From: an uncultured Alphaproteobacteria bacterium
GTDB taxonomy: Bacteria > Pseudomonadota > Alphaproteobacteria > CAAHEQ01 > UBA3637
NCBI GenBank assembly: GCA_949292205.1
Contig: CASEYR010000008.1
Location: 14,382-78,381 of the forward strand
Length of the DNA stretch: 64,000 nucleotides
Direction: 5' to 3'
Part shown: one piece after another, positions 9,698 to 53,539 of the stretch
Numbering within the stretch: position 1 is the first letter of the stretch
How the letters are laid out: the number at the start of each line of letters is the position of its first letter
Program-made: the position numbers and the translations under genes
Notes under the pieces: generated by a model
The model's input: the letters and a program-made list of their open reading frames with translations, nothing else
Databases searched by the model: none
Told to the model about the DNA's origin: nothing

Positions 9698-10681
9698 ATG
9701 AAAAAAACCATAAAAATAAACTATATGGATTTCGGACGATATTCGGATCCGGAAAAGGAGTTCTTTACACCTTTTCTACGAAAAAGATATAATGTTGTTA
9801 TCTCGGATAAGCCGGATTATATCTTTTACACACTGGGCGGTAATACACACCACAACTTTTCGGGAATTCGTATCTTTTGGACGGGAGAAAATGTTGTTCC
9901 GAATTTCAATTACTGCGACTATGCTCTTGGCTTTCAACACATGACATTTGAGGATAGATATCATCGACTTCCCCTCTGGCGAATGTGCTTGTCCGATTTG
10001 AACAAGTCTTTAGAAAAAGGAACGACCCTATCTGATACTGCTCTTTTAAATCGTCAATTTTGTGCAACCGTTATTTCAAATGCACGCCAAACAGATGGAA
10101 AGCGAGAAGAAGCTTTTGAAAAACTATCCACATACAAAACCGTTGCCTCCGGCGGACGTTGGCGAAATAACGTCGGCGGACCGATCGCTGACAAAATAGT
10201 TTTTCAGCGTCAATATAAGTTCGCATTGGCTTTCGAAAATACATATGCTCCGGGATACACAACGGAAAAAATAATACAGGCCTTTGCCTCTGACACTGTC
10301 CCGATTTACTACGGAGATCCTCGTGTCACCGATGACTTTAATCCTGACTCTTTTATCAACGCTCATGATTTTGATACGACGGAACACTTGGTCGAGTTTG
10401 TCAAAAAAGTGGATCAAGATGACACGTTGTATTTAAAAATGATACATGCTCCGATTTTCAAAAACGGACAAATGCCGACTGATTTAACCGATGAGGCTCT
10501 TTTAAAATTCTTTGAACCGATTTTTGATGTTCCGCTTAAGGAAGCTAAAAGGCGTTTTTATGCAAAGCCCTATCAAGATATTGATTACGAAAACTTAAAA
10601 ATGCGAGACCTCAAAACAATGATTAAAACGTTCGGACAGAAACAAATTAAAAAGGTAAAGCACTTTATAATCGGCAAATAA
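9698..10681 (+). CDS. alpha-1,3-fucosyltransferase (glycosyltransferase family 10), Helicobacter FutA-like
   Basis: 327 aa. FWTGENVVPNFNYCDYALGF and YKFALAFENTYAPGYTTEKIIQAF...IPIYYGDPRVTDDFNP.SFINAHDF reproduce the GT10 motifs of H. pylori FucT. Confidence 0.85.
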   Translation: MKKTIKINYMDFGRYSDPEKEFFTPFLRKRYNVVISDKPDYIFYTLGGNTHHNFSGIRIFWTGENVVPNFNYCDYALGFQHMTFEDRYHRLPLWRMCLSDLNKSLEKGTTLSDTALLNRQFCATVISNARQTDGKREEAFEKLSTYKTVASGGRWRNNVGGPIADKIVFQRQYKFALAFENTYAPGYTTEKIIQAFASDTVPIYYGDPRVTDDFNPDSFINAHDFDTTEHLVEFVKKVDQDDTLYLKMIHAPIFKNGQMPTDLTDEALLKFFEPIFDVPLKEAKRRFYAKPYQDIDYENLKMRDLKTMIKTFGQKQIKKVKHFIIGK

Positions 10682-32267: not shown

Positions 32268-33780
32268 TTACTCTGACTGAATAGTAGCACAATCAACTAA
32301 AGCACCGTTGCAAGCACAATCATCAGCCGCCTGAGCACAACTATGTTCATCGTTCAAGAATCGAACGTAAAGAGGACGCTGATAATAAGCCGTTGTCACG
32401 GGTCCGGCAGTCGTCACGGGTCCGGCAGTCGTCACGGGAGCCGTTGTCTCAGGAGCCGTTGTCGTTGTCGGAGCCGTTGTTGTCGTTGTCGGTGTAGCCG
32501 TCGTTGTTGTTGAAAGTGGTCTAGAGAAACTTGTCACCGTTGAGTACTCATTACTGACAGGATTAGACACAGACGATCCTTTTGACGATGTTGACTCAAA
32601 CAACGGATAGGTTGTTCTTGGATACGTCGTTGAGGTCGACTCTGTCATGGTTGACGTTGTCGTTGAGTGTGACGTTGTCGACGGCAACGTTGAATACGAC
32701 GTTGAGTGTGACGTTGTCGACGGCAACGTTGAATACGACGTTGAGTGTGACGTTGTTGACGGCAACGTTGAATACGACGTTGAGTATGACGTTGTCGACG
32801 GCAACGTTGAATACGACGTTGAGTATGACGTTGTCGACGGCAACGTTGAATACGACTGTCGACGGCAACGTTGAATACGACGTTGAGTGTGACGTTGTTG
32901 ACGGCAACGTTGATACCTCTGTCATGGAAGAAATCGTTGACGGCAACGTTGAATACGACGTTGTTGACGGCGACGTTGAATATGACGTTGTTGACGGCGA
33001 CGTTGATACCTCTGTCACGGAAGAAACCGTTGACGGCAACGTTGAGTGTGACGTTGTTGACGGCGACGTTGAATACGACGTTGAGTATGACGTTGTTGAC
33101 GGCGACGTTGATACCTCTGTCACGGAAGAAATCGTTGACGGCGACGTTGATACCTCTGTTACGGAAGAAACCGTCGACGGCGACGTTGATACCTCTGTCA
33201 CGGAAGAAATCGTTGACGGCGATGTTGATACCTCTGTTACGGAAGAAACCGTCGACGGCGACGTTGAATCAGGCGGTGGCGTTGTTGTCGTTTGAATATC
33301 AGCACACTGACAAGACCCATCTATATACATCGGCATCTGACTGGGATGACATGTAACACATGATGGACAACATTGTGCCCTATTCTGCTGATCCGGAGCA
33401 TAACAACCACTGGGACAAGATACATCCCCACCGATAACACTGCTTGTTATTACATCACCCAGCGTTGAAATCACATCGCCTTGTATCGTGGTATCCCCTA
33501 ATATAGTAGAGGTTGTATCCCCCACAACAGTGGAAGATGTATCCCCAAGTGTTGTCGTGGAATCATCCGCAAATGTTGTCGTTTCAAAGAACGGCGTGGA
33601 TGACATACCACATCTGGGATCCGATGGATTTTCCTCACAATAACAGACGCATCGCCCGTCAACAAATCCAACCGGATCAAACTCACACTTGTCAGGCGCA
33701 CAACATACCTCTGCCGTCCATCCGACCTGTGACAAAATCAACGGGATGACCGCCACCCCTGCCATTAAAACGATACGCAT
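32268..33780 (-). pseudogene. secreted mucin-like Ser/Thr-rich repeat protein with N- and C-terminal Cys-rich domains; frameshifted
   Basis: ORF 32596..33780 (signal peptide, CC-containing Cys domain, VSSVTEVSTSPST repeats) and ORF 32268..32843 (STLPSTTSYSTSY repeats, TTTAP linker, C-terminal Cys domain) are one gene. They are split by a frame change at about 32857, where a 39-nt repeat unit lacks 14 nt. Confidence 0.75.
32640..33280. repeat. two families of 39-nt (13-codon) tandem repeats
   Basis: About 7 copies of GTTGAGTGTGACGTTGTCGACGGCAACGTTGAATACGAC, then about 8 copies of GTTGACGGCGACGTTGATACCTCTGTCACGGAAGAAATC-type units. One unit at 32857..32881 is truncated to 25 nt. Confidence 0.9.
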
Positions 33781-35022
33781 TTAATCCTCCTTTTGACGTC
33801 CCGATGTCGTCGGTGCCGCCTGCATAACATTTACCTGACGCACCAAACGGGGCGTTCCTTTGGGTTGTTTCAGGGTATAGATAAACTCTTTATTTTTAAT
33901 TGAATCCGTTAACAACTTTTCTGCCGGCGGAATAACCCTATCCAACTGGCGTTTTAATACCGTCAACACCTTTGCCCGATTTGGGGTCCATTGATTTTGG
34001 GATTTTAAATAATCCGGTTCATTGGCGATAGCCGATTTCAACACATCCAAACTCTTTTGTGCCCGTGTATATTGAATATACCGCATTTTTACCAATGATT
34101 CATACTCATGATCCACCATATCCAGATTAAGCAAAACCAAACTATCCACCACCTTCATTCGGCGATATTCGGAATGAAAGAAACAACCGGACGGGTCATC
34201 AATTTTTCCTGTTTCTATTTGTGAAACATCATAAATCGGATACCCCCATCGGGTTTGCATATCCCGTTTCCGTTCATCAACCAATTCGGCAGGAACTTCC
34301 GCCAACTTGTCCCCCGTAATTAAATACTTTTCGGGGATAAACTTGCCCCCGTATTCATTCCGATGAAACATATCCATATTCGGCACAAAGAACGGCACAT
34401 CAAATAAAAAGGACATATTTTCATTCACAACATCCCGCAGTGTTTCGGCATACGCCCGTTCATCAGGGGTAAATGTATTCAGGACTTTATCCGGTATTGT
34501 AAAAAACGGTTGCGCCCCTTGAACCGGTTCAAAAACCGCCATCATTTTACCGGCATCCAATTTAAAATGATACACGACAACGCGATTTTTATATAAACTT
34601 AACCGAAAGTCATCACCCCAATACAGCCCGCTTGCCCCCGGTCCCCAATACCAATTACCTTGATTCGCCCGAATCAAAGCCATATAATGCGGGGGAATTT
34701 TATCATAGTTAGAGGAAGCCTCCATTTTTTGATTAATATACGGTATTTTTTCAGGATCACGGGTCCGTCGCGGTGGGAAAGCAGCCGTTGCCAAATGTTT
34801 TGCAACAAAGTCATCTATACCGGTTAACGGGATATCAACGGATTCCGTTTTGGGACGGGATATCCCCTTGCCCATCCGTTGTCCCCCGACGGAAGCCAAC
34901 ATCACCCGATTTCTGGCGCCTGTCTGTCCCGTATATCTACCGGATGCCCCCATGACCGGTGTCGTCGTCATAACCGCCATTGCCAATAAACTTAACATCG
35001 TCTTTTTTGCCTGATATCCCAT
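33781..35022 (-). CDS. secreted hypothetical protein (413 aa)
   Basis: N-terminal signal peptide (MKKTMLSLLAMAVMTTTPVMGASG). No recognisable domain. Its stop abuts the ATG of the mucin-like gene (TAAATG). Confidence 0.55.
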   Translation of the reverse strand: MGYQAKKTMLSLLAMAVMTTTPVMGASGRYTGQTGARNRVMLASVGGQRMGKGISRPKTESVDIPLTGIDDFVAKHLATAAFPPRRTRDPEKIPYINQKMEASSNYDKIPPHYMALIRANQGNWYWGPGASGLYWGDDFRLSLYKNRVVVYHFKLDAGKMMAVFEPVQGAQPFFTIPDKVLNTFTPDERAYAETLRDVVNENMSFLFDVPFFVPNMDMFHRNEYGGKFIPEKYLITGDKLAEVPAELVDERKRDMQTRWGYPIYDVSQIETGKIDDPSGCFFHSEYRRMKVVDSLVLLNLDMVDHEYESLVKMRYIQYTRAQKSLDVLKSAIANEPDYLKSQNQWTPNRAKVLTVLKRQLDRVIPPAEKLLTDSIKNKEFIYTLKQPKGTPRLVRQVNVMQAAPTTSGRQKED

Positions 35023-35036
35023 GTTTTTACTCCTTT

Positions 35037-35885
35037 TTATTCGTCCTTAACTTCACCACATCCTGCCGGCACCCATTCACCGTTGTCATCTTTACCGGTA
35101 CACTTGGGGCAACATTCGCACGTTGTTACACCATCACCATCTTCATCATTACAATTATACAGCTCACCGGCACAACAGGCAGACTCACCAGCTCCATTCA
35201 CATACGCTTTTTCACCGTCCGGACAACCCTCGCACTTACCATCTTTAATGCTTGCCTTGTCACAACAAACGTATTCACCGGCATCATTTTTGGCAATGTC
35301 TTCACTGGCTTCACAACACAACGCCACCCCTTCCTTTTCACGCAATACTTCCGAGGCATCGCAACAATATTCTATTCCATTTGAACTTATATATGGAACT
35401 TCCCCATCCTTACAACACGAAGCCTTACATGACTTTGTTCCATCATCTTCCACACACACTTTGTTCGGAGATATACAACATGCCTCTATCCTAGAAGTAG
35501 GGGTTGGATTATACTTTTCCGCATCAGCTGGACAACAACCATATGTATAAGCTAAAACTCCAGATGGACATGTTCTAGTCCCCGCGATATACCATTGCAG
35601 TTCAGCACTATCATCATCACCACCACAGCACGGCGTTCCATCCGGCGCTAAATTTGAACAGAACAAACCGCCACAAGAAGATCGACAACACCCAGCATGT
35701 ACAGCACAATCATCTGCCCCAAAACAAACTTCTTTAGAACACTCCGAATATCCAGAGGGGCAGTTTATCACATCATCTTCTTCCGATGCATCAACTGGAC
35801 ATGCATCAAAAATCTGAGCACTGCCAGAAAAGCTATAAGCAATAAGAAACAATAGTACATATATCCATATCTTCATATACACCAT
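35037..35885 (-). CDS. secreted cysteine-rich protein with CC doublets (282 aa)
   Basis: Signal peptide, then about 45 Cys, many as CC pairs (CCKDG, CCDAS, CCEAS, CCDKA, CECCPKC). Start 4 nt after the stop of the upstream gene. Confidence 0.6.
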   Translation of the reverse strand: MVYMKIWIYVLLFLIAYSFSGSAQIFDACPVDASEEDDVINCPSGYSECSKEVCFGADDCAVHAGCCRSSCGGLFCSNLAPDGTPCCGGDDDSAELQWYIAGTRTCPSGVLAYTYGCCPADAEKYNPTPTSRIEACCISPNKVCVEDDGTKSCKASCCKDGEVPYISSNGIEYCCDASEVLREKEGVALCCEASEDIAKNDAGEYVCCDKASIKDGKCEGCPDGEKAYVNGAGESACCAGELYNCNDEDGDGVTTCECCPKCTGKDDNGEWVPAGCGEVKDE

Positions 35886-35889
35886 CCTA

Positions 35890-37416
35890 TTATTCAGAAA
35901 CTATATCTTCATTTTCATCTTCATTTTCATCTTCATTTTCATCTTCATTTACTTCAATACTAGAGCCTAAAACAGAACATGGTGGACTATAGTATCCTGT
36001 CCCTGATTTAGTAGATATGGCACAAACAACCGGATAATATTCTATCTTATCACATCCGCAATTAGCCGTCGGCTTCACACAGATGGGGGCAATCCTAGCT
36101 AGATGATGCGTCCACGATGGAGCACAACCATAAATCAAATAACTACATAGACCAGAATAATAAACCTCATTAGATAACAGTACCTCACCCGGTTTACAAG
36201 GAGAGCAAGCCTCATTCTGAGGAACACCGTTACAACAATACTGTCCCGCATTCAAACATGTTCTACCACACAAACCATGAACACAACACTGACCTGTATC
36301 AGATTTTTCACCATCGCAACTGCCGATTCCACCCATACCGGGCTCATCATTACCACTATTACCACCACTGCTGCCGCCATCTTCGACATCACAAAACTCA
36401 TTGTCCGGAAGACAAACATTTTCGCACTCATTCGTTCTATCAGGGCAAGAGCAATAGCTACCTGATTGTCCCTTAACCGTATAGGGGCAATCCTCTTTAC
36501 AACACCCATCTACGCACTCATACGGCCTATCCGTCGGGCATCCACCACACGACTCACCGTCCGGAATACAAACACCTTCGCAATCATACGTTCCATCAGG
36601 GCAAGAGCAATAGCTACCTGATTGTCCCTTAACCGTATAAGGACAATCCTCTTTACAACAATCGTCCTCACACTCATACGGTGTCGTTACAAGGCATCCG
36701 TCACCAGAACAGAATCCCGCATCATCACAATCATCGCAACACTTTAAATCCGACGGACACAAAATCGTCCCATACGAACATCCGCCCTGACAATCCGTTC
36801 CAAAGCACAAAATAAACGGTGTCCGAGCTTCCCCTTCGGGATTTTCAGCATTCGGTCGAGACGGACTCCGCTTTGCCGGATCCACAATCTCACAAAACGC
36901 ATCAACTTCATCCTCGTCAGAGGTTGTATATACAAATTTGTTTGAATCGCTCAACCTTGCCGATGTATACTCTAAATTTGCACGCAATAGCTTACGACAA
37001 ACATTCCATGTCATTTCCTCAACATAGACTTCAAATGTCTTTTTGTTAATAACATCAACAAAAATCTCGGCCCCCGTCGGCGTCGTAAAACCATAGATCG
37101 TTCCATCCGCTTCCGGTTCTAAAAAGGTAACACCGCTAATCACTTCTTTGATCGGGATCTGGATACGCCCCCCTGCCTCGGCACGTTCACCATACTTGTC
37201 CGTAATAAATCCCGTTCGCGATCCAACGATTGATTTAACAACCCAGTCAACGGTTTCATTTTCTTTATGGAGTTCAATAGCGTAATGGTATCCCCACAAT
37301 GCCGTTATAGACAAAACACCGACAATAGCCAGTGTTGCCAACATTTCAATCATGGTCCTACCCGATTCGCCTTTCAAATCACCTTGAAGCACGCGAAATC
37401 CCTTAAACATACCCAT
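35890..37416 (-). CDS. prepilin-like N-terminus fused to a disulfide-rich repeat domain (508 aa)
   Basis: N-terminus MGMFKGFRVLQGDLKGESG|RTMIEMLATLAIVGVLSITALWGY: short basic leader, Gly, Glu at +5, about 20 hydrophobic residues (class III signal-like). About 150-aa domain, then Cys-rich modules with a 52-aa internal duplication (YEC.DDCCKEDCPYTVKGQSGSYCSCPD) and an (EDEN)4 acidic tail. RBS GGGGGT. Confidence 0.6.
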   Translation of the reverse strand: MGMFKGFRVLQGDLKGESGRTMIEMLATLAIVGVLSITALWGYHYAIELHKENETVDWVVKSIVGSRTGFITDKYGERAEAGGRIQIPIKEVISGVTFLEPEADGTIYGFTTPTGAEIFVDVINKKTFEVYVEEMTWNVCRKLLRANLEYTSARLSDSNKFVYTTSDEDEVDAFCEIVDPAKRSPSRPNAENPEGEARTPFILCFGTDCQGGCSYGTILCPSDLKCCDDCDDAGFCSGDGCLVTTPYECEDDCCKEDCPYTVKGQSGSYCSCPDGTYDCEGVCIPDGESCGGCPTDRPYECVDGCCKEDCPYTVKGQSGSYCSCPDRTNECENVCLPDNEFCDVEDGGSSGGNSGNDEPGMGGIGSCDGEKSDTGQCCVHGLCGRTCLNAGQYCCNGVPQNEACSPCKPGEVLLSNEVYYSGLCSYLIYGCAPSWTHHLARIAPICVKPTANCGCDKIEYYPVVCAISTKSGTGYYSPPCSVLGSSIEVNEDENEDENEDENEDIVSE

Positions 37417-49387: not shown

Positions 49388-50803
49388 ATGAAACAAACAT
49401 TCACAAAAGTCGTGGCCACATTAGGCCCCGCAACGTCTAGTGACGATAAAATCAAATCTCTTATGCGTGCAGGTGTCAATGTTTTCCGTTTAAATTTTAG
49501 TCATGGAGATCATGCAGAACATCAAAGGCGATTTGATATTATTCGCAAACTTTCAAAAGAAAATAAGACACATTATAGTATTTTAGCTGATATGCAGGGT
49601 CCAAAACTTCGAGTCGGACATTTTCAAAACGAACAAATTACATTAAAAGTCGGTCAAAATTTCAGATTAGATATGGATGAAACACCCGGCGATGAAACGC
49701 GAGTATCCTTAATGCATCCTGAAATTTTTGCTGTTTTAAAAGCAGATATGACTCTTTTATTAAATGATGGGCAAATCCAACTACGTGTAAAAGATTTTGG
49801 AAAAAACTATGTAAATACAGAAGTTATCGTTGGCGGTCCCTTATCCGATCATAAAGGGGTCAATGTTCCTGATGTTATTCTACCTATTTCGGCCTTAACA
49901 GAAAAAGATAAAAAAGATTTAGCTTTTGCTTTAAAACTAGGGGTTGATTGGATTTGCTTATCATTTGTGCAACAACCGGAAGATGTTCAAATGGCACGAG
50001 AGTTAATCGGAGACAAAGCCGGTATTATCGTTAAAATAGAAAAACCATCAGCACTTATCCATTTAGATGAAATTGTTGATTTAGCTGACGGAATTATGGT
50101 TGCCCGCGGTGATTTGGGTGTTGAATGTCCGATCGAATCCGTTCCATCATTGCAACGTCGTATTGTTGAAACATGCCGTTTAGCAGGTAAGCCTGTTATC
50201 GTCGCAACTCAAATGCTGGAAAGTATGATTCATGCCCCCGTTCCGACACGTGCCGAAGTATCTGATGTCGCAACGGCTGTTTATGAGGGGGCTGATGGCG
50301 TGATGTTATCTGCCGAAACAGCTATGGGAGAGTATCCGATACAGGCTGTTTCCATGATGAAACGGATAATCTCTCAAATTCAACAAGATGCTTACTATGG
50401 ACCGGCGATGGAGGCTCAATCCTTACCGAAAGACAAAACGGTTGCCAGTGCTATTACCTATAGTATGAAAAAGATGGTCAAGGCTTTGGATAAGCCAGCC
50501 TGTATCGCAACCTATTCTGTTTCAGGCAAGACAACTCTGCGAGCTGCTCGTGAAAGAGCTCTTGTCCCCATTCTTGGATTAACACCTGATGAAAAAGTAG
50601 CCAATAAAATGGCTCTGGTTTGGGGTATTCATCCGTTTGTTACCAAGAACTTGAAAGATATGAATGCTGTCTCTCCGGTTGCCGTCGAAACAGCAAAGGA
50701 ACTCAAGTTAGCGAAAAAAGGAGATGAAGTTATTATTACGGCAGGTATCCCCTTCGCTGAAAGAGGAACAACAAACATTCTTCATATTGCAACGGTAGAA
50801 TAA
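49388..50803 (+). CDS. pyk: pyruvate kinase
   Basis: 471 aa. TLGPAT, MVARGDLG, K+/Mg2+ site, C-terminal allosteric domain. Confidence 0.93.
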   Translation: MKQTFTKVVATLGPATSSDDKIKSLMRAGVNVFRLNFSHGDHAEHQRRFDIIRKLSKENKTHYSILADMQGPKLRVGHFQNEQITLKVGQNFRLDMDETPGDETRVSLMHPEIFAVLKADMTLLLNDGQIQLRVKDFGKNYVNTEVIVGGPLSDHKGVNVPDVILPISALTEKDKKDLAFALKLGVDWICLSFVQQPEDVQMARELIGDKAGIIVKIEKPSALIHLDEIVDLADGIMVARGDLGVECPIESVPSLQRRIVETCRLAGKPVIVATQMLESMIHAPVPTRAEVSDVATAVYEGADGVMLSAETAMGEYPIQAVSMMKRIISQIQQDAYYGPAMEAQSLPKDKTVASAITYSMKKMVKALDKPACIATYSVSGKTTLRAARERALVPILGLTPDEKVANKMALVWGIHPFVTKNLKDMNAVSPVAVETAKELKLAKKGDEVIITAGIPFAERGTTNILHIATVE

Positions 50804-50804
50804 A

Positions 50805-50834
50805 AAAGGTGGTTTAAATACCACCTTTTTTATT
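50805..50834. terminator. bidirectional intrinsic terminator
   Basis: AAGGTGGT-ttaaata-CCACCTT with A/T runs both sides, between convergent pyk and the pilin-like paralog. Confidence 0.75.
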
Positions 50835-50856
50835 AACTGTTTTGGCTATGATAGAG

Positions 50857-52020
50857 CTAACCCGATGTGGGTGGTGTACATGTTCCATTATTCCACTCAC
50901 CCGTCCATGTTCCTCCACATGATTCACACTGAGCCTTGTATTGTAAGGAACCAACCTCTACGGTTGAACAATCCTCACACTTACCACCGACAGAAACTGT
51001 CCCATCAGCACATCGCCTGCAATAACCTCCGCCATATGCAAAATTACACCAATTACATGCTGTTCCAACTCCGGTCATACCAACCGGATTATCCCAAACA
51101 TATCCATCATCATTCCCTTCATCACAGGCATAACATCTTCCACCCTGACTATTAACGCCATGTAACGGCTTATCAATAGGACATTTACACACCCCATTTA
51201 CCTCTATCATCCCCTCGGGACACTCTAAACGACAATAAAAGGCTGAATCTGAAACTCTATTTGGACACATCGAACAAGCCTGTCCCGCTGGAAAATAGAA
51301 TACAGTCTCAGAATAACAATCTATGCATTGCCCATTATTTTTATTGGGCATAAATTGTCCCGGAGGACAACACAAGCCATTCCAACTCACACAACAAGTT
51401 TTTTCACCTTTTTCATTTTCAGAAACAGAGCTGCAACAAAAACCATCTATCATTTTATCAGTAGAACAACAAACCTTACTGTGAGCATTATTAATATCAA
51501 TACCACATTCCTGTCCATCGGGACAACTTTCTTGACAGACACCATCAATACAATCATCGCACTTAGATGAACAATCCGATTTCTTTGTACAATGTTCCGG
51601 TTTTTCTGCTGAGGCCCCCAAAGTACTCGTAAATTCAAACTGTATCCGATTTGTTTCTTGACATATATCTGCATTATTCTGAGCTATTGTATCCCCCACA
51701 TAAATAGCTATCGGTAATTTAAAGTCCGCTCTGACAATTTGCTCACAAACGCCTTGTGGAATATCGGAAAGTGTAATAGCAAAGAAATTGTCACTCAATA
51801 AAAGCTGTTGAACAGGATACCCCTGCTCCGTTTCTGATTTAAACTCTGGCGTATCTACCGTTCTCCCAACCATTAATTTTTGTGAAATAATAATGGCTCG
51901 TTTTTTAACCTCATTGATAATCTCATTGGATTGATACTTATCCATAGCCCAGCGATAACCCATAATGCCACCGATTGCCAAGACACCCATCAAAGCCAGA
52001 ACGCCCAGCATTTCCACCAT
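50857..52020 (-). CDS. paralog of the prepilin-like/Cys-rich secreted protein (387 aa)
   Basis: MVEMLGVLALMGVLAIGGIMGY... parallels MIEMLATLAIVGVLSITALWGY of the 35890..37416 protein. C-terminal half has many CC doublets. In-frame upstream codons encode ...KENESGRS with no ATG/GTG/TTG. Confidence 0.55.
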   Translation of the reverse strand: MVEMLGVLALMGVLAIGGIMGYRWAMDKYQSNEIINEVKKRAIIISQKLMVGRTVDTPEFKSETEQGYPVQQLLLSDNFFAITLSDIPQGVCEQIVRADFKLPIAIYVGDTIAQNNADICQETNRIQFEFTSTLGASAEKPEHCTKKSDCSSKCDDCIDGVCQESCPDGQECGIDINNAHSKVCCSTDKMIDGFCCSSVSENEKGEKTCCVSWNGLCCPPGQFMPNKNNGQCIDCYSETVFYFPAGQACSMCPNRVSDSAFYCRLECPEGMIEVNGVCKCPIDKPLHGVNSQGGRCYACDEGNDDGYVWDNPVGMTGVGTACNWCNFAYGGGYCRRCADGTVSVGGKCEDCSTVEVGSLQYKAQCESCGGTWTGEWNNGTCTPPTSG

Positions 52021-52276
52021 GCTTCGTCCCGATTCATTCTCTTTACTTCTCTTTATTCGGGTATATGTTTCACTTAATTCTACATTAAATTGTTACGATT
52101 TCAGGCGTTAACTCATCTCGTGTAAAAATAGAACACAAGTCTTTTAATCTTTTTCTTTTTTCTCTTGACTTATCTGTCCCGTTCGTGCTATCTCTTTCCG
52201 TAACGGTTTAATGTTCCTTTTTTTGTTATAATCATTTTCGGATACTAACAATTCATAATTTACTGATTTTTTTATT

Positions 52277-53539
52277 TTAGTTTTTACGCAACAAACAACT
52301 GTAAAAGCCATCATACCCCTGATCGGGACAAAAACGCAAGCTACCATACTCTGTCAAAAAAGGAGTCCAACGGTTATCAGTCGGATGAATAATTTCTACT
52401 AGCCCCGTTTCTAGAACAGATTGAACAACTGCGTCCCCCTCCTCTGGTTGCAAAGAGCACGTCGAAAAAACGATTTCTCCTCCTTTTTTTGTTAGCTTAA
52501 TCGCTTTTTTAAGAAGTTCTTTCTGAATTTTCGCCAACCGAGCAATATCATCAGGCTGACGAATATACTTCAGATCGGGATGACGTTGCAAAGTCCCCGT
52601 TGCCGAGCACGGTGCATCTAATAATACGGCATCAAATTTTTCTTTTTCGGCCAAGTCCAAGGCATTTGCACACGCAATATGAACTTGTTCAGTCAAATTC
52701 AATCGTTGCATATTCTCTCGCAATCGAACCAATCGTTTATCTGAGACATCATAGGCATATACTTTAGCCCCACGGCACGCAAGCTGAGCCGTTTTTCCTC
52801 CTGGAGCCGCACACAAATCAGCGACAACTTTTCCCGTTAAGTCGGAAAACAATTGAGCCGGCACACTGGCAGCACCGTTTTGAACCCAAGCCCGTGCCTT
52901 TTCGAAATCAATCAAATCCAAAGGAGAGCCACCATCAAGCCGAATAGAACCTGTAACTAAAACATCTCCTTTCCATTTATCAGCCCAAAATGAAGTATTA
53001 TCGCATACGCTAATATCCAAAGGCGGTGTATTTAAAATAATGGCAGCAAAGCTATCGGCACGTTTTTTTCCATATGCTTTAACCCAAGAATCATATAGCC
53101 AATGTGGTAAGTTAATCGACGAATCCTCAAGACCAGATAATGGATTTTCCAGCCGAGTCATAGCACGTAAAACACCGTTTATCAAGCCGGTCAATCCGTC
53201 CAGATGCATTTTTCTGGCCACCGAAACAGAGGTATTAACAAAAGCATAATCCGGTGTTCCTAAAAAAACGCCCTGAGTAACGCCCAATCTTAAGATTGCC
53301 CAAGCTGTTTTTTGTCGTTTAGGCAAGGGACGCTTCATCAAGCGATTTAAAATACCATCTATCTGACCCAATCGACGCAGACAAGTTGTCACCAACAACC
53401 GAACGAAACGCCGATCGGAAGAGTCTAATTCAGAATATACCTTATCTGCTGAAAAAGCCTCATCTGAGGTACACAGACGATCGGTAATAGCCTCCAGAAT
53501 ACGAACGGCACACAAACGTGAACTCAGATTTTCCGACAT
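52277..53539 (-). CDS. rsmB: 16S rRNA (cytosine967-C5)-methyltransferase RsmB
   Basis: 420 aa. NusB-like N-terminal domain; SAM motif DLCAAPGGKT; catalytic PCSATG. Confidence 0.8.
   Translation of the reverse strand: MSENLSSRLCAVRILEAITDRLCTSDEAFSADKVYSELDSSDRRFVRLLVTTCLRRLGQIDGILNRLMKRPLPKRQKTAWAILRLGVTQGVFLGTPDYAFVNTSVSVARKMHLDGLTGLINGVLRAMTRLENPLSGLEDSSINLPHWLYDSWVKAYGKKRADSFAAIILNTPPLDISVCDNTSFWADKWKGDVLVTGSIRLDGGSPLDLIDFEKARAWVQNGAASVPAQLFSDLTGKVVADLCAAPGGKTAQLACRGAKVYAYDVSDKRLVRLRENMQRLNLTEQVHIACANALDLAEKEKFDAVLLDAPCSATGTLQRHPDLKYIRQPDDIARLAKIQKELLKKAIKLTKKGGEIVFSTCSLQPEEGDAVVQSVLETGLVEIIHPTDNRWTPFLTEYGSLRFCPDQGYDGFYSCLLRKN

Follow-up and report, generated by a model that had tools for sequence, protein, structure and literature searches.

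The window analysed here is a stretch of 64,000 nucleotides (nt) from the genome of an uncultured alphaproteobacterium (contig CASEYR010000008.1, positions 14,382 to 78,381). On its minus strand it carries a 387-residue, pilin-like open reading frame (ORF; 50857..52020) that runs from its sole canonical start, ATG 52020, and the codons that precede that ATG in frame encode the C-terminus of a class III (prepilin) leader. This gene is best explained, with a probability of roughly 60%, as one of the copies of a phase-variable pilin-like family, either silent or disabled not long ago. It has kept its last 9-12 leader codons in frame but lost the initiation region, where an ATA, the stretch TATACCCGA and a degenerate outer palindrome half now stand, and its promoter segment would fire away from the gene. 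With the start and the Shine-Dalgarno (SD) sequence lost and the promoter directed elsewhere, no normal prepilin is expected from the copy as sequenced, and it would be without function in its present state.

Family members share a common plan: a leader ending in E-S-G, a predicted cut before R-S-M-V-E-M-L, a predicted pilin fold, and a variable Cys-rich ectodomain. In the relatives this leader is translated from an ATG behind a strong SD, just downstream of a 32-bp palindrome. A quarter or more of the 5′ ends examined have one or two such palindromes upstream, pairs of them flanking a putative promoter segment of about 100 bp that can be inverted. The family as a whole would gain and lose copies, of which the window copy would be one.

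A prepilin leader upstream of the annotated start

The ORF product joins a pilin-like N-terminal domain to a Cys-rich C-terminal module and, read from ATG 52020, begins MVEMLGVLALMGVLAIGG (MVEML...). Twenty-four sense codons lie in frame 5′ of this ATG, the last of them reading ...RIKRSKENESGRS, and the frame translates as *QFNVELSETYTRIKRSKENESGRS. It is bounded by a TAA on the minus strand (52093..52095), which lies inside the proximal palindrome described below; counted back from the ATG it is codon 25, where the first-pass annotation of the window had counted 28. The observation in that annotation that the frame holds no ATG, GTG or TTG stands (0/24 codons); CTG, ATT and ATC are absent as well, which leaves the ATA at 52056-52054 as the sole near-cognate codon. 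From there to the ATG the minus strand (52021..52056) reads ATA AAG AGA AGT AAA GAG AAT GAA TCG GGA CGA AGC, that is (I)KRSKENESG|RS. The upstream translation and the family consensus place the Gly -1 codon at 52029-52027, with the predicted peptidase cut between 52027 and 52026. After such a cut the N-terminus would be R-S-M-V-E-MLGVLALMGVLAIGGIMG, in which Glu +5 (52014-52012) is followed by about 20 hydrophobic residues.

A second pilin-like gene in the window, the operon paralogue (35890..37416, minus strand; 508 residues), has a complete 19-residue leader, MGMFKGFRVLQGDLKGESG|RTMIEML. Its ATG 37416 stands 6 nt after an SD, GGGGGTG (37427-37421), and 18 codons upstream of the Gly -1 codon (37362-37360); the protein does not begin at the MIEML, which lies inside the ORF. 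At the motif the gene reads ...KGESGRTMIEML. The leader codons that the two copies were said to have in common are conserved, GAA TCG GGT AGG ACC ATG ATT in the operon copy against GAA TCG GGA CGA AGC ATG GTG in the window copy. The Arg codon indeed changes synonymously (AGG versus CGA), and the next residue is Thr in the former and Ser in the latter. The two proteins are 24% identical over the N-terminal 170 residues only.

The same signature runs through the homologues. A search queried with the 387-residue protein from MVEML, i.e., without leader residues, found 59 homologues, 54 of which have residues upstream of the motif. All 54 carry G-[RH]-[STPR] there (GRS in 50), the Gly being invariant and position +1 being Arg in 53/54 and His in 1/54, a degree of conservation well beyond what chance would give. 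The family consensus is E-S-G|R-S-M-V-E-M-L, with Gly at -1 and Glu at +5; E16, M17 and L18 are invariant in the family alignment A1. A scan for GRSM[VL]EMLG in one genome per GTDB species yielded at least 599 stretches, 582 of them confirmed, and 80 loci were kept. Every one of the 80 comes from a metagenome-assembled genome (MAG) of an uncultured alphaproteobacterium from a ruminant, human or rabbit gut, with several copies per genome (at least 6-8). Across 81 distinct 5′ ends all four Gly codons are in use, Arg is written as both CGN and AGR, and Ser as both AGY and TCN, while at residue -2, a position that the scan did not constrain, E, Q or D stands in 81/81. Because the Gly, Arg and Ser codons vary synonymously, it is the protein that is conserved, not a Shine-Dalgarno sequence, and GGGA is not kept as DNA.

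These codon changes bear on one of the readings first offered for the window copy, namely that the conservation reflects an SD alone and that both proteins start at M[IV]EML. That reading is refuted for the operon copy, whose own ATG and SD precede the Gly by 18 codons, and for the family, in which an in-frame ATG, GTG or TTG precedes the Gly at 83 of the 84 5′ ends whose upstream frame is complete. Moreover, pairing with the anti-SD before the internal ATG is weak, the median duplex energy being -3.2 kcal/mol at the MVEML ATG against -7.9 kcal/mol at the leader start of the relatives. Gene callers nonetheless begin several family members at MVEML and thereby hide the prepilin signal. For instance, P0021 was called from MVEML but in fact has AAGGA and an ATG 15 codons upstream. 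Another member, P0048, has in-frame ATG and GTG codons upstream.

The family resembles type IV prepilins (TIGR02532 IV_pilin_GFxxxE, PF07963 N_methyl) in its short basic leader ending in Gly, its Glu +5, the following stretch of about 20 hydrophobic residues, a helix of about 50 residues and a predicted pilin fold, and cleavage of the window protein and its relatives would be predicted after the Gly. In contrast to those prepilins, position +1, the N-methylated residue, is Arg (G|RSMVEML) instead of Phe or Met, the C-terminal Cys-rich module is very large, leader length is highly variable, and no peptidase or assembly genes are seen nearby. Scores against the profile hidden Markov models lie at or below the cut-offs; the operon paralogue just passes TIGR02532 with 16.8 bits (cut-off 16.3) and reaches 14 with PF07963 (cut-off 21.2). 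The window copy matches neither at E<=0.1; at E<=0.05, TIGR02532 is matched by 3/35 family members and PRK10506 by 5/35. Against PDB sequences the family profile gives weak pilin N-terminus matches only (E about 0.4-0.8) and aligns to the geopilin N-terminus KGFTLIELL.

Structure prediction is consistent with this assignment. The AlphaFold2 model built on the family alignment consists of a helix (residues 13-63) followed by a beta-sheet (strands 82-144), with a predicted local distance difference test score (pLDDT) above 90 over about residues 30-140. Its top PDB matches in Foldseek are the type IVb pilins CofA (9iuf_A; E 1.2e-3, probability 1.0), TcpA (8uhf) and PilS (3fhu), with probabilities of 0.98-1.0, E values of 1e-3 to 4e-2 and template modelling (TM) scores of 0.38-0.45, at just 10-17% sequence identity. 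The N-terminal domain is thus predicted to adopt a type IVb-like pilin fold, a long helix packed on an antiparallel sheet.

The Cys-rich tail shows, by Foldseek, a weak resemblance to the cysteine-rich domains of the tumour necrosis factor (TNF) receptor. Between the close homologues L001 and L003 the ratio of nonsynonymous to synonymous substitution rates (dN/dS) is 0.49 in this C-terminal part and 0.08 in the pilin domain, a contrast suggesting that selection on the displayed module is relaxed or diversifying. Proteins of 118-128 residues with the same N-terminus and leaders of 6-7 residues (MKNTNESG|RSMVEML) also occur (P0097, P0099, P0101-P0103, P0114, P0152, P0154, P0174 and P0180), two of which JGI names PilE. 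They are probably the major pilins of the system into which the large Cys-rich members plug.

Leaders as called range from 7 to 116 residues across the family, and many contain translated palindromic repeats such as ...SSSGLTRGSR..., ...SFPRRRESR... or ...MPLDTRIKSEYD... (P0005, P0015, P0028 and P0049-P0058; also L001 4045-4125, L003 4040-4095 and the L009 leader). In L001 the insert has a duplicated GAATCGGGACGT on both flanks and leaves the reading frame undisturbed. The leader region seems to be a tolerated landing place for mobile hairpin elements, and part of the very long 'leaders' may be gene-caller over-extensions.

Missing start signals and putative palindrome-flanked promoters

The one family 5′ end in which no canonical start precedes the Gly is the window copy. 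In the family the distance from start to Gly has its mode at 8-10 codons, and M[VIL]EM serves as the start in 0/120 further relatives. At the corresponding place, nine codons before the Gly, the window copy has the ATA (52054..52056, minus strand). The preceding TATACCCGA (52057..52065, minus strand) occupies the position of the relatives' SD, GGAAAGGGAA in L001, L003 and L098, and contains none, the anti-SD duplex before the ATA being about -2 kcal/mol.

L098, a locus from the same study, makes the best 5′ comparator; its upstream region aligns with that of the window over about 170 nt. There the palindrome is followed by GGAAAGGGAA and ATG GAA ATG AGA..., where the window has AGAATTAAGTGAAACA-TATACCCGA-ATA AAG AGA; L001 and L003 likewise run from palindrome to GGAAAGGGAA to ATG. 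An ungapped layout against these three loci sets ATG AGA G.. opposite ATA AAG AGA, and a gapped alignment to L098 implies a loss of about 40-50 nt across the outer palindrome half, the SD and the start codons, in an A-rich region of low complexity. Whether by substitutions or by a deletion of 40-50 nt, either history gives the window a lesion wider than one base. A simple ATG-to-ATA point change is rejected, as it would leave the loss of the SD and of the outer palindrome half at the proximal site unexplained.

The rescue of a leader by a single indel is rejected as well, since the out-of-frame ATGs hit stops at once (ATG TAG at 52085-52080; ATG AGT TAA near 52117). The former is a minimal start-stop on the minus strand in the centre of the proximal palindrome, and its ATG aligns with the second start ATG of L098 in the gapped alignment. 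Elsewhere in the family, L039 has a C9 tract at about 2895-2905, within the leader-coding region and 133 nt ahead of the Gly codon (3030). Its SD and start (AAAGGAGA...ATG) are shifted to the +1 frame, and a tract of C10 would bring them into frame with ...ESGRSMVEML. Slipped-strand phase variation and an assembly error at the homopolymer are the two explanations. As L039 is the sole family leader with such a tract, a poly-C/G tract is rejected as a general leader switch.

The region upstream of family genes carries a palindromic site of 32 nt, T[GA]TNA[CA]A-N18-T[GT]TNA[CT]A, with conserved TGTNACA ends. The pattern hits 13 times in 561 kb of fetched DNA, each time within 400 nt upstream of a family gene (13/13). 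One or two such sites occur at about 20 of 82 5′ ends, paired sites lying 118-145 nt apart, and the leader start of the relatives follows a few bases downstream of the palindrome. The centres of the sites vary between loci, yet their symmetry is kept, often to the point of a perfect palindrome. The exact repeat-arm motif of the window finds no match at other loci, which have the ends and the symmetry in common with it and not the sequence. Loci with palindromic sites include L001 (3958-3989), L059, L083, L020 and L021.

Between paralogues the putative promoter segment is found inverted, which is the signature of an invertible promoter. In L013 (2787-2953) and L014 (2788-2955), two paralogues of MAG E20__bin339, a stretch of 181 nt including both sites matches at 167/181 positions as reverse complement and at 113/181 directly, within colinear flanks; CTTGACA-N17-TAAAAA points toward the gene in L014 and away from it in L013. 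In MAG JAZLAQ01, L037 (2755-2931) is inverted relative to L059 and L083, with 90% identity on the opposite strand over 172 nt and again with colinear flanks. Promoter matches in L037 are ATTGACA and CTTGACT.

The window has the elements of this arrangement. The proximal site (32 bp, 52066..52097; minus strand CGTAACAATTTAATGT.AGAATTAAGTGAAACA) has an intact inner half and a degenerate outer half, and is self-complementary at 9/16 positions against 12-16/16 in the relatives. It is separated from the distal site (32 bp, 52199..52230; minus strand TATAACAAAAAAAGGA.ACATTAAACCGTTACG) by a segment of 101 nt (52098..52198), and the two inner halves (52082-52097 and 52199-52214) form a 14/16 inverted repeat across it. 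On the plus strand this segment is promoter-like, matching the consensus with CTTGACT (52164-52170), a 17-nt spacer and CTATCT (52188-52193), and its core TTTTTTCTTGACTTAT recurs in the putative gene-facing promoter of L037. A promoter on the plus strand points away from the pilin-like gene, so that, by analogy with the paralogues, the window copy would be in the OFF orientation.

Inversion at the window locus would join ...AAAGGAACATTAAA|TTGTTACGATTTCAGG. Such an inversion would not bring in a start codon, an idea rejected on the grounds that the in-frame TAA in the repeat arm stays in either orientation. The ENA contig on the rsmB side, k87_2906667, ends at 52207, the base before the CC/TT mismatch of the repeat arms, as mixed orientations would produce. 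The gene-side ENA contig ends at 52069, which could be the edge of a repeat common to another paralogue. No recombinase was noticed in the annotation of the window, and no search aimed at recombinases was made beyond that.

Competing readings of the window copy

Several observations weigh against a silent or disabled copy. Neither a prepilin peptidase nor pilus machinery was found in the window or within 3 kb of the 80 family loci, and motif scans for an A24 peptidase and for ATPases of type II secretion systems or type IV pili found none in the 64-kb window and 634 kb of loci; prepilin processing is therefore predicted only. The OFF call draws on similarity to a consensus promoter and on the precedent of L014 and L037, and inversion at the window locus itself is suggested by contig ends. 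ATA is able to initiate at low efficiency in bacteria, and a weak, SD-like GGGA stands 6 nt 5′ of ATG 52020 (duplex -4.0 kcal/mol). The ORF has all its 387 codons intact; its dN/dS over the long term, 0.07 when measured against the closest homologue L001 (76% identity) with synonymous sites saturated, fits a gene in use or only recently disabled. Finally, about 10 differences crowd into an initiation region of about 45 nt beside an untouched ORF, which argues against slow neutral decay.

The last two points narrow what may have happened. A dN/dS of 0.07 implies purifying selection on the gene during most of its history, and with slow decay disfavoured the lesion would call for one event of replacement or deletion, or else continued expression from another start. 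Either the defect is young, or it came about in a single step, or the gene remains in use.

Continued use is the premise of an unlikely alternative, in which the gene makes a leaderless, signal-anchored protein from ATG 52020 (MVEML...) that requires no peptidase, its leader codons being a recent relic. That ATG is the sole canonical start, it has the GGGA before it, the ORF behind it is intact and constrained, and a candidate gene-facing promoter, CTGAAA-16-TAGAAT, lies at 52104-52077. In addition, P0047, encoded on a 62-kb contig of the same MAG, has likewise been called from MVEML and is alike at 33 of 36 N-terminal residues (28% overall), so a second such copy may exist; if its 5′ end were window-like, ...ACATATACCCGAATAAAG..., there would be a second start-less copy. 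However, no other family member with retrievable DNA uses the MVEML start, the codons for G-R-S-M produce the same weak GGGA/ATG context throughout the family, and the promoter match is no better than in shuffled sequence (3 found versus 5.3 expected). The product would also lack Arg +1 and Ser +2, leaving the conserved Glu at position 3 instead of 5. With the basic leader gone, positive charges C-terminal of its hydrophobic helix (GYRW..K) would, by the positive-inside rule, disfavour the pilin topology.

Translation of a full prepilin from the ATA at 52056-52054, which the first-pass annotation had raised as a rare start, is considerably more doubtful. It would yield the leader (f)M-KRSKENESG, with low initiation as a built-in throttle. 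Its position is right, nine codons before the Gly and exactly where the relatives have their ATG, and the next nine codons are open, basic and leader-like, ending in NESG as in P0013, P0023 and P0024. Near-cognate initiation is reported to be measurable in Escherichia coli (bioRxiv 10.1101/063800). What fails is the ribosome-binding site: with no SD before it, initiation at the ATA would be at best weak, whereas the relatives depend on strong SDs. Non-canonical starts are used nowhere else in the family, and in the alignment to the long leader of L098 the ATA fits the internal codons AAT CAG equally well.

A similarly improbable refinement treats the window copy as an archived cassette. The first 120-150 nt of its coding sequence (window 51900-52050) are 83-96% identical to L098 (1635-1790) and L004 (3033-3180), two paralogues of the same study with an identity of otherwise only about 50%; the same stretch is about 75% identical in the closest homologue, L001. 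This pattern suggests that 5′ ends are homogenised between paralogues, putatively by gene conversion within a genome. Under the cassette proposal a 5′ block comprising the switch, SD, ATG, leader and first ~40 codons would be exchanged by gene conversion across GAATCGGGACG...ATGGTNGAAATGCTGGG, re-arming or disarming copies. If this held, conversion and promoter inversion together would amount to two-layer antigenic and phase variation of modular pilins in gut Alphaproteobacteria.

An assembly or sequencing artefact, with a true genome that has an ATG or a start-supplying indel, is hardly credible: the window does belong to a MAG, and other assemblies break within 50-190 nt of the site, but ENA ERZ17292904 contig k87_797478, which may come from the same reads, is identical to the window across 12,682 bases, a stretch that covers the ATA and all of the leader remnant, a single base change would leave the SD missing, and upstream out-of-frame ATGs run into stops. 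Of the earlier suggestion of an indel or sequencing error, therefore, the error finds no support, given the agreement of the two assemblies and the lack of an out-of-frame ATG that one indel could rescue, while an evolutionary lesion is what the L098 comparison suggests.

Related systems, family turnover and genomic setting

Silence or weak expression of the start-less copy concerns a single gene; the larger matter is the family it exposes. At least 582 confirmed copies among GTDB species representatives make this a very large pilin-like family, several per genome, of uncultured gut Alphaproteobacteria. Its unusual traits are the Arg at +1, the fast-diverging Cys-rich ectodomains and, in a subset, putative palindrome-flanked promoters that flip between paralogues. 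They point to a phase-variable repertoire of adhesins or surface proteins in a little-studied gut lineage. The sites and the leader motif provide sequence handles for reading switch states in metagenomic reads. No description of the family was found in the literature searched for motif and pilin. It appears that neither the family nor its G|R cleavage motif nor its putative invertible promoters between palindromes have been described, and the whole is a variation on modular type IV pilins and invertons.

Type IVb pilins, represented by TcpA of Vibrio cholerae, CofA of enterotoxigenic E. coli and PilS of Salmonella Typhi, are the best structural matches of the predicted N-terminal domain. They have longer leaders and a variable +1 residue. 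In contrast to their pilus operons, the genes here are scattered singletons among housekeeping genes. Modular pilins such as PilB/PilC of Streptococcus sanguinis reportedly join an N-terminal pilin module to a large extra domain displayed on the filament, a design that the window family resembles. Here the grafted module is instead a Cys-rich repeat region, and each genome holds at least 6-8 family copies.

The switch recalls invertons such as fimS of E. coli with FimB/FimE, those of Bacteroides, and cwpV of Clostridioides difficile, in which a promoter segment between inverted repeats occurs in both orientations at genes for surface structures. The sites here differ in being 32 bp long and often perfect palindromes with TGTNACA ends, around a segment of about 100 bp, and the genes served are those of a multigene pilin-like family in Alphaproteobacteria.

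The silent pilS cassettes of Neisseria offer a further parallel, as the window copy lacks a usable start of its own and 5′ coding ends look homogenised between paralogues. Unlike pilS, which is without the conserved N-terminal coding region, the window copy keeps it. Nor does it have the extended homology with an expression locus typical of pilS, its similarity to the operon copy being confined to the N-terminal domain and its near-identity to other paralogues to the first 120-150 nt.

Other members of the family show losses of their own. In P0080 (108 residues) an internal deletion brings the N-terminal pilin part right up to the conserved tail at the C-terminus, CxDCSTV..KAQCESCGGTW..GTC, P0077-P0079 end after about 100 residues, and pseudogene-like fragments are common.

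The window has the order pyk, pilin-like gene, then rsmB, ftsZ, ftsA and ftsQ, and synteny breaks at 50804-52276 relative to L088-L093. Positional orthologues were sought and do not exist: genomes with a pyruvate kinase at least 90% identical carry pyrG after pyk. The closest homologues, P0002 and P0003, are located elsewhere in their genomes. A bidirectional terminator hairpin (50799..50834) separates pyruvate kinase from the 3′ end of the gene and is the only feature to which Rfam gives matches, all sub-threshold, within 50700-52400. JGI metagenome contigs scanned for the leader and 5′ block gave no matches.

The operon paralogue heads a minus-strand operon (32596-37416) situated directly downstream of hprK, EIIA(Man) and HPr. 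Behind the pilin-like gene it encodes a 282-residue Cys-rich secreted protein, a 413-residue protein with a signal peptide, and one of 394 residues that combines Cys-rich segments with long tandem repeats rich in Ser and Thr (STSPSTxSSVTEV); Pfam gives no match for any of the three. The window is otherwise made up of housekeeping genes, including recG, uvrA, a PTS-Ntr cluster, suf genes and the dcw cluster. At 9698-10681 on the plus strand, adjoining a sulfatase-family gene, lies a homologue of GT10 alpha-1,3-fucosyltransferases (FucT_N and Glyco_transf_10 domains) that may be relevant to host-glycan mimicry.

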